Shown here: piece by piece, positions 62-31,079 of the stretch | Position numbering within the stretch: the stretch's first letter is position 1 | How the letters are laid out: every line of letters starts with the position of its first letter | Source: an uncultured Gammaproteobacteria bacterium | Lineage (GTDB): Bacteria; Patescibacteriota; Microgenomatia; UBA10105; UBA927 | Length of the DNA: 64,000 nucleotides | NCBI GenBank assembly: GCA_964629685.1 | Contig: CAZVTT010000003.1 | Coordinates: 22,038 to 86,037, forward strand | Direction: 5' to 3' | The notes under the pieces: generated by a model | What the model was told of the DNA's origin: nothing | The model's input: only the letters and a program-made list of their open reading frames with translations | Databases searched by the model: none | Translations under genes and position numbers: made by a program

Positions 62-1579
62 TCATATCGTCTCTTCGGCTATAAACGTTTCTACATTCGT
101 ACTACAGGCAGATCTGATATCCACCGGTAACGCCGTGCACCAGAATTCCGCAGCAGCATATCCTTTCCAATCGTACATCTGTCGCACTATTTCCGTATAG
201 CATACTGTGCGTTCCGTACCTTTTGGCAGTACCGCACAATCCGGCATGATTTCCGCGGGTTTGGTCGTTTCACTGATCCGTGCAAGAAAATATCCTTCCA
301 ATGCACCGCGAACACACGTATGTCGAAGCGTATCCGGTACTGTGTCACATTCTGCTAAAACCGGCCGCAGATCACGAAGGTTGCGCTCCCGCACTATCAT
401 AGAAACCACATTGTGTACTAATGGGAGTGCACTCGTATGCAAATCCCGTTCAATCAACTCCAATGCTGCCGGTATTTGTCCCTGTGCCAAATACAAGGTT
501 AACCCTACAAAAGACATCCGGCACGCTGTGTGATAATGCGCGTGCAGTGTCGTACAGATGGCAAAGGGATGCCGCTTTACCTCCTCAGTCAAAGGATATT
601 GTCCACCCGTAATGAGCGACGCCAGCCCGTCTATCACGCCACTGGCACAGTTCTCCCGTTTAATCGAATCAGCGGAAGCTGATTCACATACGGTTATGCC
701 CTGGGGAACCAGTTTCCATGGGTCTGACGTACCCGGTAACTCATGCGCAATCACCGCGCCATGACCAATGCCATGATAACAACTGGCGATCAATTGCCCC
801 TGATTCAGCTCATCAGTAATGCCGTCACACAGTGCACGCGCCCGTGAGAGATTATCCCCGGTTCCGATCATTAACTCCATATACCCGTGAAAAAATCCGT
901 AATCACACATCCGGTAATCCACCTTCCCCGGCAGTGCTCCCTGCCATTTACGGGACAGGAACACTTCCCGCCCGATGACATGCGCTAAATCATGACATAC
1001 CTGCGCAAAATCAGCATTCCCCCGCCGTGCTTCAATATAAGAAAATGCTGCAGCTATGCCCTGACTTTTCACCCGTTGTCTGATTTCCCGTTCCCAACAC
1101 GCCGCGCGGATATCCGTACTCACCACATCACAATCGTGTGTATCCTTCCGTAGTCCTACAAGGGTGAAGACGGATTGCAGCGGCGCACGCAACTGTTCCC
1201 ACCAAGACGTATGCACGATAACAGTACCGGTAAACTGCGGAGACAAATGATCATGGTACCGCCACGATCCGGAACTGGTAAAGCGGAACGTATACGCATC
1301 AGACGCATTCACGGGCCCTTTCGCATCAAACTCCGGATACACTAAATGACTGGGATGTAAATTGGAAGCAGGCCAAAAATCTTTCTCTCTATCGGTACGG
1401 AACGTAATCGATTCTCCTACCCGAATAGAGACTAAACGTGGCTCAAATCCGGTTGCAGTTAACAGAATAGTGGTAGTCCGTGAAGCTTGTTTTAGCACGA
1501 ATGCCATCAGCAAAACACAAACGACTGCACTTCCGATTGGGATTACCAGACGATTCCGATTCTTCATGATCCACATCAT
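62..1579 (-). CDS. Membrane-anchored Cys/His-rich repeat protein (CH family) with N-terminal cupredoxin_1-like domain
   Basis: 505-aa ORF. N-terminal hydrophobic anchor (VIPIGSAVVCVLLMAFVL). Cupredoxin_1-like pattern GFEPRLVSIRVGESITF..WPASNLHPSHLVYPEFD..TFRFTSSGSWRYHDH. CH motifs follow: VCHDLAHVIG, MCDYGFFHGYME, SCYHGIGHG. 5-nt gap to upstream gene. Confidence 0.6.
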   Translation of the reverse strand: MMWIMKNRNRLVIPIGSAVVCVLLMAFVLKQASRTTTILLTATGFEPRLVSIRVGESITFRTDREKDFWPASNLHPSHLVYPEFDAKGPVNASDAYTFRFTSSGSWRYHDHLSPQFTGTVIVHTSWWEQLRAPLQSVFTLVGLRKDTHDCDVVSTDIRAACWEREIRQRVKSQGIAAAFSYIEARRGNADFAQVCHDLAHVIGREVFLSRKWQGALPGKVDYRMCDYGFFHGYMELMIGTGDNLSRARALCDGITDELNQGQLIASCYHGIGHGAVIAHELPGTSDPWKLVPQGITVCESASADSIKRENCASGVIDGLASLITGGQYPLTEEVKRHPFAICTTLHAHYHTACRMSFVGLTLYLAQGQIPAALELIERDLHTSALPLVHNVVSMIVRERNLRDLRPVLAECDTVPDTLRHTCVRGALEGYFLARISETTKPAEIMPDCAVLPKGTERTVCYTEIVRQMYDWKGYAAAEFWCTALPVDIRSACSTNVETFIAEETI

Positions 1580-1584
1580 TCGTT

Positions 1585-2628
1585 TCAGGGCACATCAGGA
1601 CTAAGTAAATCCGCATCTTTACGGCATAGCGATACGTCGTTGGGCGGCAAAGCGGCACAGACGGCATTTGCTTGTGCCGTGTAGTCAGGATGTGCAAAAA
1701 AACTCCATGATGCGCCGGCATAACACCATCGTCTGGATATGGCAGCGGAAATGGTATTGCAGGCGGATATGGCTTTATTCAGGTCATATTGTACGTGCGG
1801 TACCAACGCAAGCCCCAAACCGCGGTAACACTCCCGTTTATTTCCGGATTCCGGTATTCCACTGCACAATGCGTCTATTTTGGGCATATCCGCGGCCAAC
1901 GCATCATAGTACCAGGCTGCCAGTTCCAAATAACAGGATTTGGCAAACCGGCTATCCACACCCGTACAGGGAGCGTATGGCTCAGAAGGCGTAAACGTCC
2001 GCGTCGTAGTTAACGCTTTCGCGCCCGTCACCATCGTCGGATAGTTATACTCCATAAATACACCGCCGCTACACCCAAACCGCTCACCCTGCCACGATAA
2101 TTGACCACAGACGGCCAGTTGCTCAGAAAGTCTCCCCGGTCCGTAATATTCACCCAGTCCGTGACCGATACCATGCGGACACCCCAGTCCCATCAATCCG
2201 AATTTTTCCACGCACATTTTATCAAACCGAACTAACGTCTCCGGTCCGCCTGCGGCAATCGCAGTTCCAAAAAACCCATGGTAACACCCGAATCCGTACG
2301 AATCATCACAAACGGACACCCCTTCTACACCCAAGACACGGTAAAGACTTTCCCCGAAAAGATGCGCCGACAAATGCTGTTGCTGTTGGGGAATATCGGC
2401 AATAGCCTGTTTTACCGTTGTATACGCTACCGGTGCTGTCTGCTCTGAAATAAGTTGTTTAAACATACGGCGGATAGACGAAACATCATCTCCTGCCAAT
2501 GCCGTTTTCAGTTCAGTCACGCTAACCGTCCGGGGGCGATTAAACCGGAAATACGCTACTCCTCCAAACAAAATCAACAAGAATACCACTATGCCGATTT
2601 TTACTGTACGTATTTGTGTCCGACGCAT
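1585..2628 (-). CDS. CH-family secreted Cys/His-rich repeat protein (subfamily D)
   Basis: Track ORF is 1585..2751. The likely start is the internal Met MRRTQIRTVKIGIVVFLLILFGG at 2628, 1 nt after the upstream stop, which yields an N-terminal signal anchor. Motifs HLFGESLYRVLGV, CDDSYGFGCYHGF, CPHGIGHG. Close paralog of 13453..14445. Confidence 0.6.
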   Translation of the reverse strand: MRRTQIRTVKIGIVVFLLILFGGVAYFRFNRPRTVSVTELKTALAGDDVSSIRRMFKQLISEQTAPVAYTTVKQAIADIPQQQQHLSAHLFGESLYRVLGVEGVSVCDDSYGFGCYHGFFGTAIAAGGPETLVRFDKMCVEKFGLMGLGCPHGIGHGLGEYYGPGRLSEQLAVCGQLSWQGERFGCSGGVFMEYNYPTMVTGAKALTTTRTFTPSEPYAPCTGVDSRFAKSCYLELAAWYYDALAADMPKIDALCSGIPESGNKRECYRGLGLALVPHVQYDLNKAISACNTISAAISRRWCYAGASWSFFAHPDYTAQANAVCAALPPNDVSLCRKDADLLSPDVP

Positions 2629-2629
2629 A

Positions 2630-4105
2630 TTATTCACAATATTTCTGTGCCATCGCCTTGGGTAATCCGGTACAAACCTGTTGGGGATACTTCGTCCCGT
2701 AAATCCTGCGCATGTACGACAACGTATGATCCAAACAATGCTCCTGTTCAACTGGAAGCATTGCCCGGGATTTGCAGTATGTTAGTGCTGAAACATATTC
2801 CGTTCCGGGACTCCCGTTATCCACCAGACTCTCTACAAATGTATCCAAACAAAACCCGGTTAATGAAGCAGATAACGCCTTACAACCGGTAATATACGTA
2901 TCCCAGTTCGTCTCTTTTACACTGGCAAATGCCAGTTCCTGAATAACCGTCCGCATTGCCCATTCCACGTACCGTTCCGGAACACGCTGTACTATGAACG
3001 TTTCTGCCTTTTTCATATCAGACTTATCACCCGTTTCCAGTCCCACACCCATTGCTTCATAACAAAATGGCTGGTACGTTTCCGGGACGGCAGGACAAAA
3101 CCAAAACGGATTATCTGCATATTCCACCGGTTTATACGGACTCACGGCATAATGCATCAACACGGCATTAAACATGCCGTTTACGCAATGCGCCCGTTTA
3201 TGCGTATCCAACGTCTCACATTCCGTAAATCCGGCAGCCAGCATCGCCGGCAATGTTTTCCAATCACTTACCGTATGCACACCCAGTAATTCCATAATGC
3301 CGTGACCCAACCCATGTATGCAGGCATGGGTAGCCAAGGGATATTCTGTAGCCAGTGTATTCTCCACGTCTGTACAAAACTGGCGTGCCCGATCTAGTCG
3401 CCTGTCTTGTGTCACGAACACTTCCAAAAATCCGTGAAAAAATCCGGCACCGCAGTACAGTGTTTCCGGAATCATCACTGCAGGTAAATCTTTCCGGTAC
3501 TGCAGATACGATTGCCCCCCTATCCGATGCGTATACGCGTTACACGACATCGCAAAATCCGGAACATCCGTATACAACGTTTTCACCAGTGCAAATGTAG
3601 ACCGAATGCCTTCGGTGCTTAACGTCTGGCGCAGTAACCGTTCCCAACAATTTTGCCGCTGATGTGGCTCAAGAGACAAACACGCCTCGCGGGTTATTTT
3701 CGGAGAACGGTCGGGTATCGGTTCCTGTTTCGGAATAACCTGAATGGTACCTACGTCTGGGGCATAACTCGATCCGATATGATTATGAAACCGCCAGTTA
3801 CCGACCTTATCAAACCGGTACGACCAGGTTTCTTTCGGACCAATGGCTCGTTTCGGATCAAAATCGGAATAAATCATGTGCGACGGGTGATCGTCGGAAG
3901 CCGGCCAATACGGCAATCCACGGGTAGAACTAAATTCTACCGTATCCCCTTCATGAATGATTAATAAGTCGGGTTCAAATCCCTGGTGTGTTAAAACCAC
4001 CCGTGGTGTGGTTTTCAGCCAATACAAATGCCAACCTGCCCATCCGCAAACAAGCAATAATATCAATACGAATCCTATACGAAATAATCGGCCAAAGTAT
4101 TTCAT
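2630..4105 (-). CDS. CH-family protein with N-terminal cupredoxin_1-like domain
   Basis: 491 aa. Anchor FRIGFVLILLLVCGWAGW. Cupredoxin-like GFEPDLLIIHEGDTVEF..WPASDDHPSHMIYSDFD..ETWSYRFDKVGNWRFHNH. Then CNAYTHRIG, YCGAGFFHGFLE, ACIHGLGHG. 3-nt gap to upstream gene. Confidence 0.6.
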   Translation of the reverse strand: MKYFGRLFRIGFVLILLLVCGWAGWHLYWLKTTPRVVLTHQGFEPDLLIIHEGDTVEFSSTRGLPYWPASDDHPSHMIYSDFDPKRAIGPKETWSYRFDKVGNWRFHNHIGSSYAPDVGTIQVIPKQEPIPDRSPKITREACLSLEPHQRQNCWERLLRQTLSTEGIRSTFALVKTLYTDVPDFAMSCNAYTHRIGGQSYLQYRKDLPAVMIPETLYCGAGFFHGFLEVFVTQDRRLDRARQFCTDVENTLATEYPLATHACIHGLGHGIMELLGVHTVSDWKTLPAMLAAGFTECETLDTHKRAHCVNGMFNAVLMHYAVSPYKPVEYADNPFWFCPAVPETYQPFCYEAMGVGLETGDKSDMKKAETFIVQRVPERYVEWAMRTVIQELAFASVKETNWDTYITGCKALSASLTGFCLDTFVESLVDNGSPGTEYVSALTYCKSRAMLPVEQEHCLDHTLSYMRRIYGTKYPQQVCTGLPKAMAQKYCE

Positions 4106-4108
4106 GAA

Positions 4109-5296
4109 TTACTGCGCACAGGCAGCTTGCCACTGTGGCGGCAATACTGCACAAAGCTGTTGCTTTTCCGGAGCATCCGGACGGAAATTATAGTTCGCCA
4201 TTTTTGCCAGTTCCTCATAGCAGGCTTCCTTCACGGAAGCAATTTTTGCATGGTCACAAATATCTACGCCTTTGGCCACGTTTTTATAATCTATTTCCAT
4301 AAATCTGGTCGCGGCATCACTAAAACATAACGGCTGATGCGCTACCGGTAATCCGCTGCAAAAATCACTCACCACACCTACATCCAGATTTAAACGCGGC
4401 ACAATCACATACACCATAGCCCGGTAACACCGTTCGTTTTCAACACCCGAGAGATAAGAACAGAACGATACTAACCCCTCCGGCGTCTGTAACTCGTTTA
4501 CATGGAGTGGCCATCCTTCACTCCAGCATGAACCATGCGCTTTTCCGGTATAGGCAGCACAAAAATTCCGATGTTTCTCTACGGTAATTTCCTTCCCTTT
4601 AATCAACGCAAAATCTTCAGGTTCCAACGGCTGGAAGAGTTGCATAAATACCCCGTCGTAACACAGCTGCGAGTAATCCCTGTCCGGTCCTTTTACCACC
4701 AATTCGTCACACAACGCCAAAGCTTTTGGAATTTCCGCGTTTACGACATACATCAGCAGATGCCCGACAGCATGGTAACAACTCCCCTGCTCTATACCCG
4801 AAGGACTCCAGGAACCCCGTGCTTCACACACATCGGACAATTCATGTTTTAATTGTTGAATTTGTGCCTCCGACTCAATTTTATCGGAACGGAACCGTTC
4901 CTGAAATGCACCGTGGACGCACCCGTTGGAACATACCCCGCTGGGACACCGGGTAATCACATCTTTCCAGTTTTGCGGATTCTTCAGGGTTTCAATTGCC
5001 GATAATTTATGACCCAGTACATGACAATATCCGTAGGAAGCGTCCTGTTCCTGAATATATTTCGTTACCATAAACGCGTCTTCCATGGAAATCTTCCGCA
5101 TGAGTAGTGGTATCTCCGTGTCATAACACGACGGGTGATACGGTGAGGTTGCACATTTTTCTACGACCATCACCGCCAATTGCCGTAACGGTTGATTTCC
5201 GATTGGGGTAATTCCCATGTATCGGATTACCATAATCGAAACCAGACAGGTCAGCAGTACGATCAGACTTCCTTTTATAAGATATGTGTGTTTCAT
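4109..5296 (-). CDS. CH-family secreted Cys/His-rich repeat protein (subfamily B)
   Basis: Track ORF is 4109..5392. The likely start is MKHTYLIKGSLIVLLTCLVSIMVI at 5296, 1 nt after the upstream stop. Motifs YGYCHVLGHKLS, CSNGCVHGAFQERF, SCYHAVGHLL. Paralog of 8000..9229 (PSCYDTEIPLLM vs ADCYDKEIPKLM). Confidence 0.6.
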   Translation of the reverse strand: MKHTYLIKGSLIVLLTCLVSIMVIRYMGITPIGNQPLRQLAVMVVEKCATSPYHPSCYDTEIPLLMRKISMEDAFMVTKYIQEQDASYGYCHVLGHKLSAIETLKNPQNWKDVITRCPSGVCSNGCVHGAFQERFRSDKIESEAQIQQLKHELSDVCEARGSWSPSGIEQGSCYHAVGHLLMYVVNAEIPKALALCDELVVKGPDRDYSQLCYDGVFMQLFQPLEPEDFALIKGKEITVEKHRNFCAAYTGKAHGSCWSEGWPLHVNELQTPEGLVSFCSYLSGVENERCYRAMVYVIVPRLNLDVGVVSDFCSGLPVAHQPLCFSDAATRFMEIDYKNVAKGVDICDHAKIASVKEACYEELAKMANYNFRPDAPEKQQLCAVLPPQWQAACAQ

Positions 5297-5297
5297 A

Positions 5298-6476
5298 TTA
5301 TTCGCACGCATCCTGATACCGTTGTGGTGCCAATGAGCAAATTTCTTTGGCTTTGTTCTCACTATAGCGTTGTTTGGCGAAATGTAAGACATTCACGTAA
5401 CATGCATCCTGCTCAGAGTCGGTCAATAACTCATTTCCGCAAAATGCAAAACCGGATTCATATTCGCGATCTACCACCCCACCGAACTGCACTGCACCAT
5501 GACCAAGACCCGTAATACAAGGTGCTATCAAATCCGGACGGCGTTCCCGACAAACAGGTATCAATGTGGCCGCCGGCGCCTGATCCGGAATAAATCGCAC
5601 ACTATCATCTGCTATCGTCATCATGGCAATATCAGCGTATTCCCGTTCCGCATATCGCTCAACGAACGAAGCTGCCTTTTTCAGATTATATTCGCCCAAC
5701 CATAATACTGCCGGCATCAGATCACGGTAACACGCACCTTTATATTTTTCCGGCTGTTCCCGACAAATCCACATGGGATCATTTGCCCGCATTTTTACGC
5801 CGGCGAGTCCGTTATAGTAGGCCAAAGACAACGAATCGAAAACACCCGTCGCGCAACGCAACAATTGTTCGGGGTCGTTCGGATCCACTACTTTTTCACA
5901 TAACGCGAGTGCCGGATCAACGATTTTATGTTCATCGCCCCAATTCTTCGGTTCATGCACATTCGCCCATCCATGACCGATCCCATGAAAACAGGCATAA
6001 TACGCATCGGGAATTTTGTCCTTTAACTTCTTCCCCACTTCCACACAAAACGCGCGGGCTTGAGTAGGATCACCACTACGGATAACCAACGTTTCCATAA
6101 ATCCGTGATAAAACCCAAATGAACAATACGCAGTTTTTTCATTTAAATCAAACGGTTTTCCGCGGGCAAACAATTCATACGCACGCAATCCTATTTTATG
6201 TGTTACGTCATGACAGGTATCCACAAAGCGTTTATCTTTCGCATTCAACTCGCCCATGAGTGTCAACGCCATGGCCACCCCATGAGTTTTTAATACCTTT
6301 TCAAATAACGACTGCCAACAACTGAGCAACGCGGATTTTTCCGTTTGCTGACAGGTAGTAATCCACGCCGGATCAAACGCAGTCCGTTGATCTTCGTTTC
6401 TGATAAACCAGCCCAGCATCCCCGCAATCAGTAGCAATAAAGCACTCAGGAATAATACCTTCAGTTTACGATTCAT
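5298..6476 (-). CDS. CH-family secreted Cys/His-rich repeat protein (subfamily C)
   Basis: 392 aa. Signal anchor VLFLSALLLLIAGMLGWF. Motifs TCHDVTHKIG, YCSFGFYHGFMETLV, ACFHGIGHG, CITGLGHG. Close paralog of 12251..13402. Confidence 0.6.
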   Translation of the reverse strand: MNRKLKVLFLSALLLLIAGMLGWFIRNEDQRTAFDPAWITTCQQTEKSALLSCWQSLFEKVLKTHGVAMALTLMGELNAKDKRFVDTCHDVTHKIGLRAYELFARGKPFDLNEKTAYCSFGFYHGFMETLVIRSGDPTQARAFCVEVGKKLKDKIPDAYYACFHGIGHGWANVHEPKNWGDEHKIVDPALALCEKVVDPNDPEQLLRCATGVFDSLSLAYYNGLAGVKMRANDPMWICREQPEKYKGACYRDLMPAVLWLGEYNLKKAASFVERYAEREYADIAMMTIADDSVRFIPDQAPAATLIPVCRERRPDLIAPCITGLGHGAVQFGGVVDREYESGFAFCGNELLTDSEQDACYVNVLHFAKQRYSENKAKEICSLAPQRYQDACE

Positions 6477-6488
6477 ACCGATGTATAT

Positions 6489-8069
6489 TTATTCATCCAA
6501 ATCTGACGTAAATACATATATCATCCTATCTCCCATATCCAACGGAATATGCCGAACCGGACGGTATTGCGGGTACGAGAGGGCTGCGTCCTCCAGACAT
6601 TGCTTCGCCATAAATTCCGCCGGATATCGCAGACAGACCACATACCGCCTGCCCCCGGGTACCATTTCCACCACATTAAACCCGTCCGGTACGACCTTAA
6701 GCACCTGTTTTCCCGTTATCGTTTCAATCCAATACAAAAATGCTAAATGATCGTTTGTCATTTCTCCCGGGGCCAGCACGGATACCGTATATGCGGAAGT
6801 ACCGGGCAATGGATTTTGCCGTACATCAGTCAGAATATATTCGGCTGTTTTGCGGGTAACACCGAATTGATCCGCGACAGGTTTCGTAAACACGGGAGGC
6901 TGCATCAACAGGAAGAAGAAAAATCCACCGGCAATAAGCACACCAATCTTCCCGATTCCCTGTCGCTGATGATGCCAGGCGCTTACCATAATGCCGGCAA
7001 TCCCGAGTAAGAGTATCGGTTGAATTATGTGTACGTCGTGATCATGCGGCAAGCGGCCTAATCCCAACGCAAATGTCAGGTAATACAACACCAGAATACC
7101 GGTTACGATCAGGTTACGCCGATACCGGCGAATACCCTCCCAGGAAAACAGACCGAATACGGTTAACGCGGTGGCGGCCACAATCGAACGTTGTTGGTCA
7201 TAAAAAAATAGATCGGTAAACGTCACTGCTAAGGGTTTCCAGAACTCAAGCACCGACGCAAAGGCAAACCGGACATGGTGCGTAAAGAGAAACGCCCCTA
7301 CGACCCGAATAACGCCGAAATGCCACATCAGCGGTGCAAACAACACCATCCCGAAAAACACAAATACTCCGGTAGTAATCATCCGTTGACGGGTATGTTT
7401 GGCAGCAATAATATCAAGCATCCATGCCAACGGTAAAAAAATCAAAATGCCGTAAAACCAACTGCTTAAAAGTACCAGTGCCGCATGTAATCCCCAACGC
7501 AGCGGCACATGCCGTTGCCGGTAACTGACGACGTACCCCCAGAATACAAACAGCAATACCGGTACCAACACATATGGGGGTGTCGTAACCTGCGATATGT
7601 TTACCATCCGCGATGATGCAACAAACAGCGCAGCCGCTACTATCCCCACCAACGGGTGTGCCAGCATCGTCCCCAGCGCAAACAGCGGCAACACCGCTGC
7701 GGCATGTAGCGCGGACGCCAATGCAGCGACAATGACCGGATCAACGGAAAAAAACTTAACAACCGCCATCAGGTAGTAAAAATACGGCGGATAATAAAAT
7801 GCCGGAGATAGTCCGGTAGCCGGATGTCCGACAATAGGCAGTTCCCCATACCGAATAATGTGCTCACTCACAATATGATCTGCGGCTACGTCTCCCCACC
7901 ACCCCATGGTTTCCGGGAGCCGATACCATCGCAACACCAAAGCACAGACAAATAACACGAAAAGCACTCCCAGGTATATCCGGGATATCTGCCGTACCGC
8001 TATTTTGCTGTGGTGTTGGTCTGATTTCGTAGGCATTGTTGTTCCCAAACTGGCGGCAACGCGCCACAA
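6489..8069 (-). CDS. Polytopic membrane protein, GT-C-like architecture (putative lipid-carrier glycosyltransferase), embedded in the CH array
   Basis: 526 aa with 12 or more hydrophobic segments and a C-terminal soluble domain. The first 70 nt overlap the 3' end of 8000..9229, so the real start may be the Met at 8036. Family not assignable by eye. Confidence 0.45.
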   Translation of the reverse strand: MWRVAASLGTTMPTKSDQHHSKIAVRQISRIYLGVLFVLFVCALVLRWYRLPETMGWWGDVAADHIVSEHIIRYGELPIVGHPATGLSPAFYYPPYFYYLMAVVKFFSVDPVIVAALASALHAAAVLPLFALGTMLAHPLVGIVAAALFVASSRMVNISQVTTPPYVLVPVLLFVFWGYVVSYRQRHVPLRWGLHAALVLLSSWFYGILIFLPLAWMLDIIAAKHTRQRMITTGVFVFFGMVLFAPLMWHFGVIRVVGAFLFTHHVRFAFASVLEFWKPLAVTFTDLFFYDQQRSIVAATALTVFGLFSWEGIRRYRRNLIVTGILVLYYLTFALGLGRLPHDHDVHIIQPILLLGIAGIMVSAWHHQRQGIGKIGVLIAGGFFFFLLMQPPVFTKPVADQFGVTRKTAEYILTDVRQNPLPGTSAYTVSVLAPGEMTNDHLAFLYWIETITGKQVLKVVPDGFNVVEMVPGGRRYVVCLRYPAEFMAKQCLEDAALSYPQYRPVRHIPLDMGDRMIYVFTSDLDE

Positions 8070-9229
8070 TATTGTTGTTGCACTGCCGATCCCGGATCAA
8101 AATTAATTTGACCCTGATAGGAAATCGCTTCATAACAGGCGGTTGCCACCTGTGACGCTTCTCCCAGAGCGCATACGTCGCGCGCCCGTGAAACTTCACG
8201 TAACGGATCAATTTGAATCAGCCGTAACGCGACACCGGTAAGACACAAACCCCGGCGCGACAGCGGAATGCCGTTACAATATGCTTCAATTCTGCTCATG
8301 GCATCCGACTGTTCAAACGATTCCACGGTTATGTAATTCAATACACTCATATAACAATCCGTGAGTATGTCTTCCGTCGTTGCATAAGAACAGAATGACA
8401 CCAGTTTTTTAGGATCCCGCAGCGTTTCCCGGAACACAAAAAATGATTCTCTCCTGCACACCCACCAGTGTTCTTTATATCCGTCACAAAATGCCGGAAT
8501 ATCTTCGTCCTTCGGTCGTATATCCTTTACGATGGCCACATCTTCGGGATCGGTTGCCTGAAACACGGTCATAAATATCCCCTGAATGCAGGTGGAAAGA
8601 TAATTCCGGCCATCCGCTTTTATGCTGATTTTTTCGCAAACGTCTATCGCTTTTTCCGGAACACCGCCGGTTATATACAACGTCGTGTGTCCCAGTCCGT
8701 GATAGCACATCGATTTCTCCACTTCATGCGGCGTATACCCCGGGCGGGCCTCACACACGTCTGAAAGATCGGGAATTACTGCCGCTATCTGTTCATCCGT
8801 CAGCACGTCACCGCGGAATTTTTCCGAAAGCGACCCATGCAGACAGCCGTAGTTGCACATGGATAACGGACACCGGCTTAACACATCTTTCCAATATGTT
8901 TTATTCTTTTTCGTTTCCGTGTAACTCAGTTGATGTCCCAGTAAATGGCAATAGACATATTGTGGATCACGATCCTGCACCAACTTTGTCACTTCAAAAG
9001 CCTGTTCCATCGTCAGAAAATCCATAAGTTTGGGAATTTCTTTATCGTAACAATCGGCCCGATACCCCCTATCCTTACACGCAGCGATCATCTGATCGGC
9101 ATATTCGGAGATTGTTTTTGTTTTCGGCTTTCTGCCGGAAAACATCAGTAGTCCTTCCGCCACCACAAAAAACAACAGGAGAAAAACAAGAAACGGTTTT
9201 AGCGGAAAATGTCTGCCGGATTTATGCAT
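8000..9229 (-). CDS. CH-family secreted Cys/His-rich repeat protein (subfamily B)
   Basis: 409 aa. Anchor LKPFLVFLLLFFVVAEGLLMF. Motifs YVYCHLLGHQLS, CNYGCLHGSLSEKF, MCYHGLGHT. 14-nt gap to upstream gene. Confidence 0.6.
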   Translation of the reverse strand: MHKSGRHFPLKPFLVFLLLFFVVAEGLLMFSGRKPKTKTISEYADQMIAACKDRGYRADCYDKEIPKLMDFLTMEQAFEVTKLVQDRDPQYVYCHLLGHQLSYTETKKNKTYWKDVLSRCPLSMCNYGCLHGSLSEKFRGDVLTDEQIAAVIPDLSDVCEARPGYTPHEVEKSMCYHGLGHTTLYITGGVPEKAIDVCEKISIKADGRNYLSTCIQGIFMTVFQATDPEDVAIVKDIRPKDEDIPAFCDGYKEHWWVCRRESFFVFRETLRDPKKLVSFCSYATTEDILTDCYMSVLNYITVESFEQSDAMSRIEAYCNGIPLSRRGLCLTGVALRLIQIDPLREVSRARDVCALGEASQVATACYEAISYQGQINFDPGSAVQQQYCGALPPVWEQQCLRNQTNTTAK

Positions 9230-9243
9230 ACGCTGTACCCTAC

Positions 9244-12247: not shown

Positions 12248-12250
12248 GAT

Positions 12251-13402: not shown

Positions 13403-13452
13403 ACTTCAATTCAGATATACCGTAGTGTCAAAAATATATCTGTACGATAGTT

Positions 13453-14445: not shown

Positions 14446-14446
14446 A

Positions 14447-15667: not shown

Positions 15668-15740
15668 GTGAGTAGATTATAACCTAATACCAAAACGGAA
15701 CAGACAGCTATCACACAGTACGGGTAGAGAAGTAAATGTC

Positions 15741-16313: not shown

Positions 16314-16432
16314 ACGATTACCCTAATCCTGCCGCAATTTATTCCCCCTGTCAAGGACAGTACCATACCAAACAGCAATACCCGGAAAAACGTGCATACT
16401 GTAGAAACTACAATAAAGAAGCAATTATACTT

Positions 16433-20995: not shown

Positions 20996-22078
20996 TTACG
21001 GCTGCGGTGGCTGAAACGTCCGGAGAAACTGATTACATGCATTCTGTTCACCCGCTTCAACCTCGTTACAAATCGCCAATCCATGTCTCAGCAACGCGTC
21101 GGACATTACACTCTTGGTTAATGCACCTTCTATACAAATACGTGTATCAACTGTATCCGTAAAAAGTTCACAAAAACCCACTATCTTCTCTGCGTTCCCC
21201 TTATGCTCGAAATACATCTCCTGACCAAGAACGGAGATACACCCCAGTCGCTCAAAATCCGGTACAACGTTACATGTACGGATTGCGAGATCATATGAAC
21301 GGGTTCGCCAATAGGTCAACATACCCGACCGCCAATAACAGACTTTCCGGACCAACGGATCAAGGCTCATACAAAAACCCAATGGATCTTCAGGAATCGG
21401 TTCGGTTTCATGTCCGAAACTCGATGCTTCAAATCGTTCCATTAACAACCCACTCATACAATGCTGTCTCTCGGCATCCTGAGAAAATTTGGCACAATAC
21501 TGTTGACCCTTCACTACGCTTGCAAGTCTGTTTCCTATTGCATGACCCAACGCGTGTATACACGGATAAATCTCGGGAGAGACACGACAAAGATGCGTAT
21601 ATTCCGTGTCAAAAAAGTCCGGCGTTAAGGTACCGTCTACTACGCCCATATAGCAACCGTATCCACACATGGGAGTACATTGCGCAAACGCCGTTTCCGG
21701 ATCACGCAGCAATCTAACGGCCGACTCACCGGCCTGATGGGCAAAATCGTGGCAACGTGATATACCGCCACTATCAGCATTATCTGAACGATTATATTCC
21801 TCCTCCGCTACCAGCAGCACTGTACGCAATCCAAAATCATGAATTGCCGTAAAAAGGGGTTTCTTCCAACAGGAATTCCATTCCGTTCGATTACCTAAAA
21901 ACCGTTCGCATGTATTCCAGTGTGCTTCTATATACTGTCTGGCGTCCGTATTTGCTTTGTACTGAGTCCATTGATCGAAATAAGCAAAAATGCCCATCAC
22001 ACAAAAAACAAGAATCATTACGGACAACGCTCGATGACGCAGATTAATGTGTTTCAGGATATGATGCATAAGAAGCAC
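20996..22078 (-). CDS. CH-family secreted Cys/His-rich repeat protein (subfamily F)
   Basis: 360 aa. Anchor ALSVMILVFCVMGIFAYF. Motifs RCHDFAHQAG, CGYGCYMGVVDG, PCIHALGHAIG. Divergent from the 22192 gene. Paralog of 27140 and 29961. Confidence 0.6.
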   Translation of the reverse strand: MLLMHHILKHINLRHRALSVMILVFCVMGIFAYFDQWTQYKANTDARQYIEAHWNTCERFLGNRTEWNSCWKKPLFTAIHDFGLRTVLLVAEEEYNRSDNADSGGISRCHDFAHQAGESAVRLLRDPETAFAQCTPMCGYGCYMGVVDGTLTPDFFDTEYTHLCRVSPEIYPCIHALGHAIGNRLASVVKGQQYCAKFSQDAERQHCMSGLLMERFEASSFGHETEPIPEDPLGFCMSLDPLVRKVCYWRSGMLTYWRTRSYDLAIRTCNVVPDFERLGCISVLGQEMYFEHKGNAEKIVGFCELFTDTVDTRICIEGALTKSVMSDALLRHGLAICNEVEAGEQNACNQFLRTFQPPQP

Positions 22079-22191
22079 TTGATGGTAATCATAAAAGATA
22101 GCTACTATCTCATCATAGTAGAGAGATAGTTAAACTCAAAAACCCCATGAATACAATTGCGTTTACACTACGGGAAATAAACACCCGTATC

Positions 22192-23772
22192 ATGCCGAAA
22201 CTTAACGAGGTACTGCGTAATCTTATTTTCCGGTATACCCATTTACCGCTGTGGACACTGGCCTTGGGATTCATGTGTCTTGTCTTAATCGGCCGTATAC
22301 CGCTTTTAAAATCCCCCACGCTTCCCATTAACGACGGAGGACTTTTTATCCCTGTTGTCAGAATGATACGGACGAACCCGCTTAGTTATCCCCAAAATAT
22401 GGGGTACAACCTCCCTATTCCCTTTGCTTACCCACCCCTGGGCATGTATCTGCTCGCAGCAATTTCTGCAGTCATTCCGAATGCAGAACTTCCGTTGTTT
22501 ACCCTCACACCATTTATTATTGCAATACTCTGCATCCCGCTCTTTTTTTTATTGGCATATTACCTGACAAAATCACGATCCATTGCCGGAATCGCTACGC
22601 TTATTACCGCCATTATCCCGGAAAGTTATCAGTGGATAATCATGGGAGCGGGTATCACCCGGGCTACAGGTGCTTTTTTTGCACTGTGCACCTTGGTAGC
22701 TGTAGTACTCTGGCAACAAAAACCGTCGAGACTGTTGTTTTGTCTGATAGGATTATTTTGCGGACTGGTATTCTTATCGCATCCGGATACATCCGTTTTT
22801 ATCGTTTATTCCGTTTGTATTTTTATACTTACAGATCAAACCGAAACACTTGTTCAACGGATACTTACCATTATGGGTATTCTGGGGATAGGCGGTATCA
22901 TCGCAGCCCCATGGCCTATACGGGTTATCACCTTCCATGGATTTACCCCGTATGCGTTTGTCGCTGAACTCCGACAACACAATGGTTTTCCGATGGAAAA
23001 TCTTATTTGGATACTGAGTAACGAACTCCAATATCGACTCCTGCTTGTTTCTGCGGCAAGTGGAATACTAATTGCCTATTTTACGAAATACAGAAGACTC
23101 ATCATCTGGGCAGCTGTCGTTCTCGTAGCAAGAGCAACCTCCATGATTTCATTCGATGTTTTTCCATTAGCACTCTTAGCCGGTATAGGGTTAACTACTC
23201 TACCGGTAATCTTCACAAAACAGATATACCGACAAACGTATAAAGCAATAGTAATCATGTTTCTGCTTTTCTCGTTCCCATGGTCAGTACAAACGGTATC
23301 GGAACGGTTTACCAGATTAAGATCCGATGATATCAGTGCACTTGAATGGGTCAAACAATTTACTCCGCAGTCTGCACGGTTTATTCTCATTTCATCACAA
23401 CCGGATTGGTGGAAGGATGCAGTACCGGAATGGTTTCCGGCGATTACTGGACGAATAAGTCTGGTTACCGTACAAGGCTCCGAATGGACTCCATTCACCG
23501 AACATCACCGTACCATCCTGTTCCATCAGGCAATCCGGCGCTGTAATCAAAGCACAATAGCTTGTATAGAATCTGCAGCAACTTTAGCAGCACTACCGTT
23601 TTCTCATCTCTATCTCGTAAAACACAAAGATCAACCCGGAGTTGGAGATTATTGTCCTCTGCTTCTGCATTCAATACGTAATTCCGCTAATTATCGGGTA
23701 ATTTTTGGAAATGAAGCAGCAGAAATATGGGAAAGAACAGACACACTCCCCAGCTCTAAACCTTCCACTTGA
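22192..23772 (+). CDS. Polytopic membrane protein, NDGG-loop family (GT-C-like); paralog of 28411..29955
   Basis: Track ORF starts at 22147. Start moved to the Met at 22192 (MPKLNEVL) from alignment with the paralog and because a TACAAT box at about 22152 lies downstream of 22147. Motif LPINDGGLFIPVV. C-terminus KDQPGVGDYCPLLLHSIRNS is shared with the paralog. Confidence 0.5.
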   Translation: MPKLNEVLRNLIFRYTHLPLWTLALGFMCLVLIGRIPLLKSPTLPINDGGLFIPVVRMIRTNPLSYPQNMGYNLPIPFAYPPLGMYLLAAISAVIPNAELPLFTLTPFIIAILCIPLFFLLAYYLTKSRSIAGIATLITAIIPESYQWIIMGAGITRATGAFFALCTLVAVVLWQQKPSRLLFCLIGLFCGLVFLSHPDTSVFIVYSVCIFILTDQTETLVQRILTIMGILGIGGIIAAPWPIRVITFHGFTPYAFVAELRQHNGFPMENLIWILSNELQYRLLLVSAASGILIAYFTKYRRLIIWAAVVLVARATSMISFDVFPLALLAGIGLTTLPVIFTKQIYRQTYKAIVIMFLLFSFPWSVQTVSERFTRLRSDDISALEWVKQFTPQSARFILISSQPDWWKDAVPEWFPAITGRISLVTVQGSEWTPFTEHHRTILFHQAIRRCNQSTIACIESAATLAALPFSHLYLVKHKDQPGVGDYCPLLLHSIRNSANYRVIFGNEAAEIWERTDTLPSSKPST

Positions 23773-24405: not shown

Positions 24406-24406
24406 C

Positions 24407-25563: not shown

Positions 25564-25569
25564 TATAAT
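25564..25569 (+). promoter_or_regulatory. Candidate -10 box TATAAT 6 nt upstream of the 25576 ATG (leaderless-type)
   Basis: gagTATAATtgccccATG. No Shine-Dalgarno sequence. Confidence 0.3.
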
Positions 25570-25575
25570 TGCCCC

Positions 25576-27132: not shown

Positions 27133-27139
27133 AACGCGG

Positions 27140-28318
27140 TTAGTTTCCTAAACATCGTGCCGCGTCTGCAGGAGCCAATGTGTTACACACTGTTTTTCTG
27201 TTCCGTTCACCGTTCGGGCTGTTGAGAATATTTTCCCCCAGCGTATCGAAACAAAATGTACGGAGTTTATCTTTGGCCATACCACACAGTTCTACCCCAT
27301 GCCTGGCAGTTCCCTCAGAAATAACACTGCTGGCGAGCGCTCCTTCAATACATTTTTCGCGCCGTGTGTCATCCGGAAAACCGTAACAGAACGGAAATAA
27401 TTTTTCCGCATCGCCCCGTACGGTATAGTACATTTCCTGTCCTAACGTAAAAATACATGCCATTTTCTCCATATCGGATACGGATTCGCAGGCTGCTACC
27501 GCTGCGGAGATGTCGGATGTTCGTAAATACGCCATAAACCCAGCCCTTCGATAGCATATGGCCCGTCCGTCACCATCAGGCAATGTTTTACAGAACGCGG
27601 TCATGTCCGCAGGGATTGGCAGTAACGCATGACCGTAATCGCTGGCTTCAAACCGCTCCATAAATAACCCGCTCACACATTGCTGCCTGTCTTCGGATTG
27701 GGAAAGTCGGATACAATACCCTACCGCATCTTCTATTGTTCCTATCCGGTCTCCTATTGCATGCCCCAAAGCGTGATAACACGGTTTAGGATAGGCATCG
27801 TCGCTGCAAACGGACGCGTACTCCCGGTCAAATTGTTCATTAGTATGAAAATACCCTTCCAGCACCCCCATAAAACACCCGTACCCGCAAAATGGCGTAC
27901 ATGACTGGAATGCTTTTTGCTTATCCTTCAGCATGTTCATTCCGGTTTTTCCTGCTACGTGAGCTAGATCATGACAGGCAGTGATGCCCCCGGAACCGGA
28001 ATAATCATTTTGGGACAACATGGTTTCTATACCACGCAACACCGGCGTAAGACCCCAGCGGGAAATCGCGTCCGGTAACGACTTCTGCCAGCATTGAACC
28101 CATTTTACCCGATCGGTTACGACTTCACTGCATACCCGCCACTGTCGCTCCATTTCCGTCCGTATTTCTACGGCTTGGATATTAGCCTGACGAATTCCCG
28201 CAAGGTGCAGGAAAAAGTAACCGATCAACACAGCAAAGACAAATACCGATACGCCTACCGGCAATCGTTTATTTCGGATACTGTTTCGTAAGGTCTTCAC
28301 CATAAAATCACCGTACAC
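27140..28318 (-). CDS. CH-family secreted Cys/His-rich repeat protein (subfamily F)
   Basis: 392 aa. Anchor LPVGVSVFVFAVLIGYFFL. Motifs ACHDLAHVAG, CGYGCFMGVLEG, PCYHALGHAIG. Divergent from the 28411 gene. Confidence 0.6.
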   Translation of the reverse strand: MYGDFMVKTLRNSIRNKRLPVGVSVFVFAVLIGYFFLHLAGIRQANIQAVEIRTEMERQWRVCSEVVTDRVKWVQCWQKSLPDAISRWGLTPVLRGIETMLSQNDYSGSGGITACHDLAHVAGKTGMNMLKDKQKAFQSCTPFCGYGCFMGVLEGYFHTNEQFDREYASVCSDDAYPKPCYHALGHAIGDRIGTIEDAVGYCIRLSQSEDRQQCVSGLFMERFEASDYGHALLPIPADMTAFCKTLPDGDGRAICYRRAGFMAYLRTSDISAAVAACESVSDMEKMACIFTLGQEMYYTVRGDAEKLFPFCYGFPDDTRREKCIEGALASSVISEGTARHGVELCGMAKDKLRTFCFDTLGENILNSPNGERNRKTVCNTLAPADAARCLGN

Positions 28319-28410
28319 TACTTGCTATTGTTATACAATCGCATCGGTATTACGGTGTGATCACATACTTCTGCTCCGTGTACATTCTGCTAAAATTTCC
28401 GCATACAGAT

Positions 28411-29955
28411 ATGATACCTACCAATAAACTCATCCGCCGGATACAAACTTTGCCGCTTTACCACCTTATACTGCTGATTACCGTTCTTGTCTTCATAGGA
28501 AGAGTTTCCCTACTCTCATCCCGTCTTCCCATAAATGACGGAGGCATTTTTTTATCTTTGGTCCAAACACTCAGCAAACATATATGGCAGCATCCCGAGA
28601 CATTGGGATATAACCAAAGCGCCATTCCGTTTGCCTATCCCCCGTTGGGAATATATATCCAGGCAATAATTACCCGTATATTGCCGCTTACAGCTCTTGC
28701 CCTCTTTACGCTTGTACCGTTTTTCGTATCACTCTGCTGTATTCCGGTTTGGTTTTATCTTTCGTACCGTATTACCGGATCCAGGAGTATTGCCGTTTTC
28801 AGCACATTGCTGGCTGCCGGCATTCCGGAAAGTTTTCAGTTATTGATCATGGGTGCCGGTATCACCCGGGCCTGGGGAACACTATTTGGATTACTGTTAC
28901 TGGTATGCATCGACGCATGGCAGCAATCAGGAAAACGAAAATGGTATCTGCTTAGCGGAGTCTGTTTGGGGTTGGTAGTAATTACCCATCCGGACGCCAC
29001 GGTGTTTAGTGCGATTATCGGGACGTTGTTTTGGTTCCGGCGGACAAAAAAAATTACTCCCCGAAGCCTTCCCGGATATATTGGAATTGGTAGTATTGCC
29101 GGAATCATTGCCGCACCATGGATGCTGTCGGTGATTCAAACCCATGGCCTTAGTCCCTTCGCTGCCGCTTCCCAAACCAGACGATTCACTGAACTGCTGG
29201 CTTCAAATATATTCTGGATTTTTAAAATAGAATTTCCATACCGCTGGTTGCTGCTGTTTACCTGCATTGGCATATACGGTACCTTAAAACAAAAGCGCCA
29301 TATCTTCCTTCTCGTCTGGCTTATCTTGGCAATCACCATCCGCTCCAATTCCATGCTGACATTTGATATCTTCCCGTTTGCGCTGTTGGGGGGCATTGGT
29401 ATTTCCGCTGCAGCACGACTATTCTTCAATGCCAAATTGGTATTGCACTATTATGTCTACTGTCTGATTTTTATGAGCTTAACCCTTTTTTGGTCGGCTG
29501 CATATATCGGAAAAACCATACCCAGATTGCAGCAAACGGATTACGAACTGTTTGCCACAATCCGTAAGGAAACTCCCCCAACGGCATCTTTTCTGATTAT
29601 TACCCCGGAAAAAAATTGGTGGAATGACCACATACCCGAATGGTTTCCTGCACTCACCGACAGAAAAAGTATCCTTACGGTACAGGGAACCGAGTGGTTA
29701 CCGCAGCACGAAATTAACCGCCGGATCAAATTTTACCAGGAGATCCGCCGCTGTAACACCGAAGATGTTGAATGCATAGAATATGCTTCCCGCAATAACG
29801 GCGTATCATTCACACATATTTATATGGCTCTGGCAAAGGATCAACCAGGTGTTGGAGACTACTGCCCGTTACTCTTGCGTAGCATCCGCACGTCTTCGCG
29901 GTATCGGGAAATGAACGGCACCACAACCGGTGCCGTTTGGGAACGGATAGAATAA
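28411..29955 (+). CDS. Polytopic membrane protein, NDGG-loop family (GT-C-like); paralog of 22192..23772
   Basis: The track ORF starts at a GTG at 28357. ATG at 28411 (MIPTNKLIRRIQTLPLYHL) preferred, with a TAAAAT box at about 28391. Motif LPINDGGIFLSLV. C-terminus KDQPGVGDYCPLLLRSIRTS. Confidence 0.5.
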   Translation: MIPTNKLIRRIQTLPLYHLILLITVLVFIGRVSLLSSRLPINDGGIFLSLVQTLSKHIWQHPETLGYNQSAIPFAYPPLGIYIQAIITRILPLTALALFTLVPFFVSLCCIPVWFYLSYRITGSRSIAVFSTLLAAGIPESFQLLIMGAGITRAWGTLFGLLLLVCIDAWQQSGKRKWYLLSGVCLGLVVITHPDATVFSAIIGTLFWFRRTKKITPRSLPGYIGIGSIAGIIAAPWMLSVIQTHGLSPFAAASQTRRFTELLASNIFWIFKIEFPYRWLLLFTCIGIYGTLKQKRHIFLLVWLILAITIRSNSMLTFDIFPFALLGGIGISAAARLFFNAKLVLHYYVYCLIFMSLTLFWSAAYIGKTIPRLQQTDYELFATIRKETPPTASFLIITPEKNWWNDHIPEWFPALTDRKSILTVQGTEWLPQHEINRRIKFYQEIRRCNTEDVECIEYASRNNGVSFTHIYMALAKDQPGVGDYCPLLLRSIRTSSRYREMNGTTTGAVWERIE

Positions 29956-29960
29956 ATCCG

Positions 29961-31079
29961 TTACTTCAGACAACTGGCCATATCCCCCGCAGGAAGCGCA
30001 GCGCAGAAAGGCTGGCGCAAATCCGTACCATATACATAGGCAACTTTCTGCCCTAATTCGGAAAAACACAAGCTACGCTGATTTCCGGTAAGTAACGTAC
30101 AAAGGGCAATACTGTGATCCGCTTTCGCGTTGGTAATCACATCGGACTGAATACTACCCCGGATGCAGGAATCCACCAGCTCCGGACGTAATCCTGCACA
30201 AAATTCAAATATTCGGCCGGCGTCTCCGTCCACCTGAAAATAATACATATTCGCTAAACTTACCAGGCAGTCGGGTCGGTCCTTCTGCTCCACCGCCATA
30301 CACTCACGCAATGCCTGCTGTTCGTCACGCAATCTGCTGATGCTGTTTTCACCCGTCTGTTTTGCACAAACGGATGCATACGTACCCGGAACATCCTTAC
30401 AGAATGACTGCATTCCTGCATACGCTACGGGCCCGGGTTCACTGTCTGTCCCGATCATTTCCATAAACACACCCGCCGCACACCGTTCACTGTCCGGTAC
30501 ATCTCCGAGTTCGCCGCAGTAATCCAACGCTGTATTTACCGTGTAGGATGCTAATTCTGCCATTGCATGACCAAGCCCATGAATACATGCGTCATACGTT
30601 TGAGGTGGATATCCGTGCTTAAGCGATGCACATACCCCGGGAATGCTTTTCCGATCAAACCGCTGCCGCTTCATATAGGCAAACAAAGCTCCGTGTGTAC
30701 ACCCAAAACCGCAGGCACTACTGCAGGACACAACCACCGAACCGATAGGGGTACCTTTTTCCACCTCCGCTTCCCCGACCAGATGCGCCAGGTCATGACA
30801 ACTTACCCAGCCTGCTTCACCGGCGTACTCCCGTTCCCGAAAAGCCAGTTCAAGTGCCGGAAGAATTTCACTTTGGTTATATTTCCGGACGAGCGGCGTT
30901 ATTTTCGCTTTTATGCACGCAGCCCGGATATGTTGATCCCGGCATGATACCAATACCTCCGTTATGGCATCCGAAAGAGAAGTACCGGTTGTATTCTGAT
31001 ACCGTACCCATAAATATCCGGACATCATAAGCATCCCAATGATCAATACCAAACGGATAGCAGTGAATGTATACCGCAT
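29961..31079 (-). CDS. CH-family secreted Cys/His-rich repeat protein (subfamily F)
   Basis: 372 aa. Anchor AIRLVLIIGMLMMSGYLW. Motifs SCHDLAHLVG, CGFGCTHGALFAYM, ACIHGLGHAMAEL. 18 nt downstream of the membrane-protein gene 31098..32765. Confidence 0.6.
   Translation of the reverse strand: MRYTFTAIRLVLIIGMLMMSGYLWVRYQNTTGTSLSDAITEVLVSCRDQHIRAACIKAKITPLVRKYNQSEILPALELAFREREYAGEAGWVSCHDLAHLVGEAEVEKGTPIGSVVVSCSSACGFGCTHGALFAYMKRQRFDRKSIPGVCASLKHGYPPQTYDACIHGLGHAMAELASYTVNTALDYCGELGDVPDSERCAAGVFMEMIGTDSEPGPVAYAGMQSFCKDVPGTYASVCAKQTGENSISRLRDEQQALRECMAVEQKDRPDCLVSLANMYYFQVDGDAGRIFEFCAGLRPELVDSCIRGSIQSDVITNAKADHSIALCTLLTGNQRSLCFSELGQKVAYVYGTDLRQPFCAALPAGDMASCLK

Follow-up and report, generated by a model that had tools for sequence, protein, structure and literature searches.

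The 64,000-nucleotide stretch of contig CAZVTT010000003.1 analysed here (the window) contains fourteen related genes for cysteine- and histidine-rich, membrane-anchored proteins, eleven of which stand in one array, and the locus raises the question of what so many copies of such a protein do on the surface of a very small cell. The Patescibacteria, or candidate phyla radiation (CPR), account for a large part of bacterial diversity. With genomes of about 1 Mb, they are mostly episymbionts, and hardly any of them have been brought into culture. To our knowledge, the function of their envelope and their dealings with the host are largely unknown. The paralogs are presumably important, since such tiny genomes would be unlikely to keep so many ordered copies otherwise. 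The analysis describes them as a family of alpha-solenoids, and the best explanation of the observations as a whole, held tentatively and with somewhat less than even confidence, is an extracytoplasmic, disulfide-braced, metal-holding solenoid system which includes non-blue cupredoxin domains.

The existence of the family depends on the similarity of its members. The preliminary description of the window had listed fourteen open reading frames (ORFs) with shared Cys/His motifs, and the ORF listing contains all of them at those positions, each on the minus strand. In an all-against-all BLASTP comparison they form one connected family at 20–42% identity. The closest pair, named here by the lower coordinates of the genes, is 20996/27140 (E 3e-94, 41% identity), followed by 5298/12251 (E 3e-90, 42%), 4109/8000 (E 1e-88, 36%), 2630/9244 (E 5e-70), and 1585/13453 (E 2e-61, 33%). 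A hidden Markov model (HMM) built from the 14 paralogs retrieves only those 14 from the six-frame translation of the 64-kb window. The shared motifs are alignable as proposed: the MAFFT alignment gives 11 invariant Cys/Gly columns and three His motifs across the 14 sequences. The first motif needs one correction, as it is present across the family but its Cys is missing in 14447, 13453, and 1585. The Cys/Gly columns are retained by homologues from other genomes, which refutes a low-complexity coincidence. All 14 proteins carry one hydrophobic segment at the N-terminus (19-residue Kyte-Doolittle mean 1.9–2.8), in agreement with the anchor described before, and such a single anchor most likely places the remainder of the chain outside the cytoplasm. 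By the sum of gene coordinates, the family occupies 17.4 kb, or 27% of the window. The GC content is uniform across the array region and thus gives no hint of a recent import.

The family had been called unrecognised, and the searches bear this out, with no Pfam, NCBIfam, or PDB-sequence assignment and no close solved structure among the fold-search matches. The Pfam and NCBIfam scans of members gave nothing above threshold, only sub-threshold cupredoxin matches and noise, and for 5298 and 8000 there was no Pfam or NCBIfam signal whatever. Neither a Sel1, a TPR, nor a HEAT match was found for ten main-array members (hmmscan against Pfam, E<=1), and the same three were absent from the NCBIfam results of the ten members scanned, including 14447 and the three genes outside the main array (the E type). 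The profile of the 14 paralogs, compared with all PDB sequences, gave a single match to an amidase (E 0.98), which shares 'CxHGxGH' and was rejected as spurious. The tblastn search of 50,697 phage records gave no match, and no description of the solenoid family was found in the literature on Cys-rich, cupredoxin, plastocyanin, helical-repeat, and S-layer proteins of CPR bacteria.

The genes of the array, in the order of transcription, and the three members outside it are listed below, with the subfamilies (A to E and K) to which they belong.

15741..16313, minus strand: leader gene, 190 residues; an N-terminal transmembrane helix is joined by a linker rich in Pro, Thr, and Ala to a cupredoxin-like beta domain lacking the His motifs.
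14447..15667, minus strand: subfamily A, the most conserved type, and the first of the solenoid genes in the array; all five His present.
13453..14445, minus strand: subfamily B, likely start 14445 and not 14541; all five His present.
12251..13402, minus strand: subfamily C, solenoid only, modelled with AlphaFold2 (AF2); homologues elsewhere reach 58% identity.
10751..12247, minus strand: subfamily K, cupredoxin and solenoid; three of the five solenoid His lost, cupredoxin His motifs kept.
9244..10776, minus strand: subfamily K, N-terminal cupredoxin and solenoid, modelled with AF2.
8000..9229, minus strand: subfamily D, with orthologues at 47–49% identity.
6489..8069, minus strand: embedded non-member of about 526 residues with about nine hydrophobic segments.
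5298..6476, minus strand: subfamily C.
4109..5296, minus strand: subfamily D, likely start 5296 and not 5392.
2630..4105, minus strand: subfamily K, cupredoxin and solenoid; the first His is Asn.
1585..2628, minus strand: subfamily B, likely start 2628 and not 2751.
62..1579, minus strand: subfamily K, cupredoxin and solenoid, last gene of the array.
20996..22078, minus strand: subfamily E, separate from the main array; Met replaces the third His.
27140..28318, minus strand: subfamily E; the third His is Met.
29961..31079, minus strand: subfamily E, directly downstream of the multi-transmembrane gene 31098..32765 on the same strand.

The co-directional array of eleven members stands on one strand as first described, but it is interrupted by an unrelated twelfth gene, 6489..8069. 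The tight packing also holds in general, with the spacing revised to gaps of −26 to +73 nt between 16313 and 62 when the corrected starts are used and the start of 6489..8069 is excluded; that start is uncertain, as the ORF and the end of 8000..9229 overlap. Three ORFs had been over-extended, and their corrected starts (14445, 5296, and 2628) each lie 1 nt past the upstream stop. No Pfam or PDB match was obtained for 6489..8069, and its weak homologues occur inside or beside the arrays of three other loci (L019, L025, and L050). The position of the array behind a small cupredoxin-like gene was confirmed as a recurring arrangement: 14 loci have a leader of this kind, lacking the histidines, immediately upstream of their 14447-type gene. 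Promoter and terminator scans of positions 1–17000 gave results at or below the shuffle expectation and were uninformative on the transcription units, and Rfam returned no RNA family over the whole window.

The distribution of the family extends far beyond this contig. A word-indexed search returned 361 relatives, all annotated as hypothetical, with Gottesmanbacteria, Portnoybacteria, Sungbacteria, and 'Patescibacteria group' as the named sources; among the named homologues, that of Candidatus Gottesmanbacteria is the closest (56% identity). The exhaustive profile search of 1.84 billion cluster representatives retrieved 7,270 clusters, defined at 50% identity, with the limit set to E<=1e-3, and 1,849 with E<=1e-30; a further 334 relatives were found among one genome per GTDB species. 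Arrays of 2–14 genes were collected from 73 other loci of the Microgenomates, Parcubacteria, Nomura-, Kaiser-, Yanofsky-, Taylor-, Colwell-, Doudna-, and Daviesbacteria, and Paceibacterota. Several loci from MAG records (L004-L007, L009, L013-L015, L020, L040, and others) are titled 'uncultured Gammaproteobacteria' or 'Verrucomicrobiia', with arrays 41–58% identical to that of the window; such titles are probably placeholders or the result of mis-binning.

The order of the genes is conserved together with the genes themselves. The family HMM finds 435 copies in 76 loci, and the removal of L002 and L003 as redundant leaves 74 loci and 421 copies, each typed by its best-matching window paralog. 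Nearly all of them (403 of 421) have the same orientation as the query gene. The recurring subfamilies are A (14447), B (13453/1585), C (12251/5298), D (4109/8000), the cupredoxin-fused K (9244, 2630, 62, 10751), and E (20996/27140/29961). The A type, present in 42 of the 74 loci at 41–54% identity to 14447, is the first gene in 30 of these 42 runs, with a mean relative position of 0.06, and the close relatives L004-L006 share most of the gene order of the window. Orthologues in other loci are 45–58% identical, compared with at most 42% among the window paralogs, which implies that the duplications predate the divergence of these lineages. Judged from the sequences, the paralogs are thus at least five ancient subfamilies with superphylum-wide orthologues and not the product of a local expansion.

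The structure of a single member was predicted for 12251..13402 from a 71-sequence alignment, with a predicted local distance difference test score (pLDDT) of 94.9 and a predicted template modelling score (pTM) of 0.90. The model is all-alpha and consists of the anchor helix followed by 18 more helices (19 in total), many of which form hairpins of a short and a long helix. The N-terminal hydrophobic segment is modelled as a long helix both here and in 9244..10776. The repeat units of about 40 residues proposed earlier are broadly right, and they correspond to Cys-bearing helix hairpins, but the N-terminal units are only weakly supported: profile-profile comparison with hhalign supports internal duplication for three C-terminal segments in the C-terminal two thirds of the chain (probability 80–95%). 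In the fold search, the best structural matches are 8cwy, importin-4, the A subunit of PP2A, and the TPR domain of LGN.

Cysteines are the first conserved feature of the solenoid, with 14–21 of them in each window member. Their columns, as well as those of the histidines, were counted in 437 members aligned to the family HMM (14 from the window and 423 from other loci) and are given in the numbering of 12251. The near-universal cysteines come in six neighbouring pairs, of which 130/148, 179/192, 222/233, and 293/304 are present at 94–99% and 329/342 at 89–94%. The variable cysteines are gained and lost with their neighbours, as described by the phi correlations for 34/39 (0.94), 74/104 (0.97), and 363/374 (0.83) and for the alignment columns 100/108 and 256/268 (1.0 each), values which are inflated by the subfamily structure. 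The best co-varying partner of a variable cysteine is nevertheless always the adjacent cysteine column, as would be expected of disulfides inside one hairpin or linking adjacent ones, and the cysteine count is even in 366 of the 437 members. Because neighbouring columns co-vary and the counts are mostly even, the cysteines are read as structural disulfide pairs and not as metal ligands, and the solenoid would probably contain 8–10 intra-domain disulfides.

The second conserved feature is a set of five histidines, H75, H79, H110, H150, and H154, each conserved at 90–94%. The complete set is found in 380 of 437 members (87%) and in every subfamily, and conservation stays below 60% in every Asp, Glu, Lys, Arg, or Ser column of the same alignment. 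In the AF2 model, three long helices in succession carry the histidines in their first turns, in the pattern H-x3-H, H, H-x3-H. A site defined solely by histidines on adjacent helices is most simply explained by metal binding, and on this ground the five positions are regarded as a putative metal site, at odds which we consider roughly even. The exceptions are systematic. The third histidine is replaced by Met, also a copper ligand, in 20996 and 27140, and one of the five is lost in 2630. The 10751 type has the pattern H-x-H-x-x in 14 of its 22 members, with H-D-H-R-N in the window copy. Such a type, in which the cupredoxin His motifs are retained, may be a degenerate, non-binding subunit.

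The cupredoxin-like domains of the preliminary description are real in 62, 2630, 9244, and 10751, but the gene 15741..16313 is a homologue without the histidines. Sequence profiles detect the domain at low scores: Cupredoxin_1 reaches 15.7–18.7 bits in the N-termini of the four proteins against a cutoff of 27, and the NCBIfam equivalogs of amicyanin and plastocyanin reach 15–18 bits against cutoffs of 88–110. The two-domain protein 9244..10776 was modelled with a pLDDT of 94.0 and a pTM of 0.89, the latter of which suggests that the two domains would be held in a fixed arrangement. In a Foldseek search, its residues ~50–140 match the Nitrosopumilus purple cupredoxin 5fc9, plastocyanins, and amicyanins with target-normalised TM-scores of 0.7–0.8, with E-values from 2e-4 and 22 PDB hits at E<=1e-3. 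The leader 15741..16313 has a weak Cupredoxin_1 match and is related at E 1e-26 to the profile of the standalone cupredoxin-like proteins of other loci.

The ligands of the domain differ from those of blue copper proteins. In an alignment of 72 sequences with 9244 as the first, H92-P-x-H95, H126, H128, W86-P-A-S89, and D102 are invariant, and D127 is near-invariant. The phmmer alignment of 9244 with amicyanin (E 4e-4) places Asp127, which lies between H126 and H128, at the position of the ligand Cys92, and amicyanin His95 and Met98 have no conserved equivalents in the 9244-type domain in this alignment. The blue-copper ligand set is therefore absent, because the Cys position is taken by Asp and the His and Met of the loop are not conserved. 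The four invariant histidines and the Asp suggest a predicted non-blue, type-2-like metal site.

The partners of the arrays in other loci add to this description. Standalone cupredoxins that bear the HPxH and HxH motifs are usually found at the 3′ end of the arrays. In about 20 loci the arrays are accompanied by a small Ig-like beta-sandwich protein of about 180 residues with a signal peptide and a C-terminal transmembrane helix, the examples of which are given below; in about a dozen loci it adjoins the standalone His-motif cupredoxin.

L059:11416-11901: small Ig-like protein.
L060:11431-11940: small Ig-like protein.
L032:4161-4694: small Ig-like protein.
L063:14151-14642: small Ig-like protein.

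The Ig-like protein has an invariant histidine right after its putative signal-peptide cleavage site (A-H-G-x-G-x-S-x-E). It gave no CopC, YcnI, or PCuAC match and only a weak similarity to filamin-type Ig domains. Another recurrent partner, embedded in the arrays of 12 loci (e.g., L049:7315-8774 and L066:915-2377), is a pair of a ~160-residue protein and a ~325-residue multi-transmembrane protein, neither of which has a Pfam match; in the protein P0129 the ~325-residue part is fused N-terminally to a solenoid domain. The protein P0121 is a polyprotein of 3,580 residues with seven tandem family domains, some repeats of which are identical, and hydrophobic linkers between them. Such a succession of seven family domains supports an action of the family members side by side.

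Taken together, these features can be arranged into a proposed mechanism. The family members would be type-II membrane proteins, the topology of which is inferred, with a short cytoplasmic tail and one transmembrane helix. Their extracytoplasmic part would be an alpha-solenoid of ~350 residues, built from about eight helix-hairpin units and probably braced by the 8–10 disulfides. The five histidines on the first three long helices may form a metal site, possibly a binuclear one, and the N-terminal cupredoxin domain of four members may add a non-blue, type-2-like site. The paralogous proteins could then act next to one another at the outer surface of the cytoplasmic membrane, as a single system for the binding or relay of metal or for a metal-dependent redox chemistry acting on envelope or host-derived material. 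The metal-binding or redox role suggested in the preliminary description thus gains indirect support from the five near-invariant histidines and from the four invariant histidines and near-invariant Asp of the cupredoxin fold. The leading candidate for the metal is copper, to which the cupredoxin fold, the ligand sets made up of His only, the change of His to Met in two members, and the partner with the N-terminal histidine in other loci all point; even so, its assignment from these residues must be called rather unlikely, and any specific chemistry of the paralog system is far less probable than that.

A broader version of this proposal considers the arrays to be an extracytoplasmic multi-metal (probably multi-copper) machine ancestral to the Patescibacteria, which performs redox chemistry at the cell surface. 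Its parts would be the ordered row of penta-His solenoids, the non-blue His/Asp cupredoxins, and, in many lineages, the N-terminal-His protein; its candidate roles would include the handling of oxygen or oxidants, electron exchange, and oxidative attack on the envelope polymers of the host. As far as we know, the Patescibacteria are thought to lack conventional respiratory chains. This extended form is a distinctly unlikely one.

Several observations weigh against the metal-holding system. The conserved 10751-type subfamily persists despite the loss of three of the five histidines, and the spatial clustering of the five was deduced from helix periodicity only. Type-3 copper sites have six histidines, and hemerythrin has five histidines with two carboxylates, so that five histidines without a carboxylate fit no textbook metal site exactly. 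The solenoid family is without similarity to any known metal-binding helical family. The Ig-like protein with the N-terminal histidine is absent from this window, and the glycoside hydrolase and alpha/beta-hydrolase fusions described below point to envelope polymers, not to metals. Finally, the setting of the window in a glycosylation island fits a role in a surface coat equally well.

This last point leads to the first rival explanation, in which the proteins are non-catalytic surface scaffolds, such as a coat, an S-layer-associated lattice, or adhesins, and the histidines are structural or pH-sensing. Alpha-solenoids commonly act as binding scaffolds, and the only structural neighbours found for the family are HEAT, TPR, ARM, and designed repeat proteins. 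Rigid and braced by disulfides, the solenoids would offer surfaces to which proteins or glycans bind, in the architecture of the envelope or in attachment to a host. The Hcp proteins of Helicobacter offer an analogy, and many divergent paralogs per genome are in line with such a role. A periodic surface layer, without an outer membrane, has been seen in CPR cells by cryo-transmission electron microscopy (bioRxiv 10.1101/2020.05.14.094862), which also agrees with a scaffold. The neighbourhood of the array points in the same direction, as the window forms a glycosylation island that encodes at least 15 large multi-transmembrane proteins, several of which have PMT_2 or PTPS_related matches and most of which have no Pfam match. 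Each E-type member adjoins one of them: 20996 is divergent to 22147..23772 and 27140 is divergent to 28357..29955. The two membrane proteins, of about 535 residues, match each other at E 1e-132, and thus the divergent pair of an E-type and a multi-transmembrane gene was duplicated as a unit. Against the scaffold stands the fact that variable adhesins rarely keep an identical five-His set in 87% of members throughout a superphylum. The orthologous subfamilies and their order are conserved and not lineage-specific, the recurring cupredoxin partners with invariant histidines have no obvious role in a coat, and a large multi-transmembrane gene is found inside or beside the array in only about 11 of the 74 loci. 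A link with glycosylation genes as a general rule was rejected, as the GT-C-like proteins of the window have no BLAST counterparts in the related loci. The scaffold is judged to be unlikely, but it is the main rival.

The rest of the neighbourhood can be described briefly. The glycosylation island, an unusually dense one, spans 16433-64000, and its multi-transmembrane stretches include 16433-18271, 22147-23772, 25576-27132, 28357-29955, 31098-32765, 34335-36200, 36211-37917, 39082-42338, 46185-49611, and 54383-61908, among which 22147/28357, 36211/39082, and 56003/58697/60313 are groups of paralogs. The window also has five GT2 genes (including 18268, 37871, 52730, and 53527), a UDP-glucose/GDP-mannose dehydrogenase at ~18996-20285, a DegT aminotransferase at 43437-44909, and epimerases at 44962-45948 and 51937-52767. 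The DUF7282 genes 20292..20915 and 32737-33783, both on the minus strand, adjoin E-type members, the former following 20996, and DUF7282 genes are also found near the E-type copies of L001 and L004-L006. On the plus strand, 24386-25516 encodes a Hint-domain protein (PT-HINT 8e-14) with a long Tyr/Gly-rich 'YYGYGQG' repeat, preceded by a membrane-anchored protein of ~187 residues (23842-24405, plus strand). The two genes are also found together beside the arrays of 8–13 other loci of CPR bacteria, where they often diverge from the A-type gene that comes first. The GC content dips to 0.406 at 50–52 kb, where a Fic/DOC gene (49662-50762) and a DUF695/RraB-domain gene (50847-51632) lie on the minus strand; they may form an inserted or toxin-like module within the island.

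The second rival considers the solenoid to be an enzyme or a substrate-binding subunit which remodels peptidoglycan, polysaccharide, or the wall of the host, with histidines acting in catalysis or substrate binding and with a specificity set by each paralog. The fusions are its main evidence. The polyprotein P0121 ends in the N-terminal domain of GH3 (E 2e-62) together with LRV/HEAT repeats, and in P0131 an N-terminal alpha/beta hydrolase (Abhydrolase_2, E 9e-9) is fused to the family domain. Multiple paralogs could match multiple substrates, and there is a precedent, since some polysaccharide lyases and lytic transglycosylases combine an alpha/alpha repeat architecture with catalysis by His or Tyr. 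However, only these two fusions occur among the 150 representatives listed, no conserved acidic or Tyr residue is available as a partner of the histidines, and the fold matches give no support. We regard such an enzyme as improbable.

The third rival turns to the cysteines, which would be thiolate ligands for the storage or detoxification of metal, as in the Cys-lined helical copper storage proteins. The 14–21 cysteines per protein, the helical fold, and the associated cupredoxin domains are compatible with this idea. The paired gain and loss of cysteines and their mostly even counts are, however, the signature of disulfides, and the proteins are extracytoplasmic and membrane-anchored. As inferred from the predicted secondary structure, the pairs lie at the ends and starts of helices within one hairpin and do not line the core of a bundle, and the thiolate role is very improbable. 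The last alternative, by which the common motifs would reflect chance or low sequence complexity, or the ORFs would not be true genes, is already refuted by pairwise E-values down to 3e-94, thousands of homologues, confident AF2 models, and conserved synteny, and its probability is negligible.

The metal-holding solenoid system, which is preferred over these alternatives, has consequences for the study of the CPR envelope. The definition of the family, its probable disulfide pattern, the five-His site, and the cupredoxin partners provide testable constructs and a marker operon for studies of the CPR envelope. If copper or another redox metal is bound at the solenoid site, the family would represent a new class of helical metalloprotein, and such metal binding would hint at extracellular redox chemistry in organisms considered to be purely fermentative.

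In comparison with known systems, the building blocks are familiar: alpha-solenoids, disulfide-bridged repeats, and cupredoxins are already known. For the solenoid family itself, its five-His signature, the fusion with a His/Asp cupredoxin, and the ordered superphylum-wide operon of several paralogs, no described counterpart was found. The generic alpha-solenoids (HEAT, ARM, TPR, and de novo designed repeats) are the best structural matches of the family. A close analogy in construction is offered by the Sel1-like repeat (SLR) proteins, among them HcpA/B/C of Helicobacter, which are secreted, disulfide-bridged helical repeats with several paralogs and a Cys spacing of 7 residues. Both groups are exported alpha/alpha hairpin solenoids encoded as several paralogs per genome, and the co-varying Cys pairs of the solenoid family may correspond to the disulfide that each Hcp repeat carries. 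The spacing in the solenoid family is 5–30 residues (10–18 in the regular repeats) instead of 7, and the five-His cluster, the uncleaved anchor, the cupredoxin fusions, and the conserved operon order are found only on its side; there is no Sel1, TPR, or HEAT Pfam signal at E<=1. SLR membership was rejected, as no structural similarity to HcpB or HcpC was found. LanC-like proteins are alpha/alpha toroids with GxxG motifs and a Cys-Cys-His zinc site, and membership in this family was also rejected, as neither a LanC profile match nor a similarity to the closed alpha/alpha barrel was obtained.

In type-3 copper proteins and the diiron protein hemerythrin, H-x3-H motifs on neighbouring helices, antiparallel or parallel, supply most of the ligands, and H75-x3-H79, H110, and H150-x3-H154 on three consecutive long helices resemble this arrangement by functional analogy only. 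The differences are the number of histidines (five, not six), the lack of conserved carboxylates, and a host structure other than a four-helix bundle. Membership in the tyrosinase/hemocyanin group was rejected, with no Tyrosinase or Hemerythrin Pfam match and no such structure among the listed fold matches. The Ig-like partner of other loci resembles CopC, YcnI, and PCuAC in its N-terminal histidine on a beta-sandwich. In 62, 2630, 9244, and 10751, the N-terminal domain shares the fold of the type-1 blue cupredoxins, but it lacks their His-Cys-His-Met (or Gln) ligand set, scores below the curated thresholds, and is fused to a solenoid. In engineered azurin, the exchange of Cys for Asp gives a type-2 copper site, and the His/Asp domain of the array would functionally resemble this variant rather than the electron-transfer blue site.

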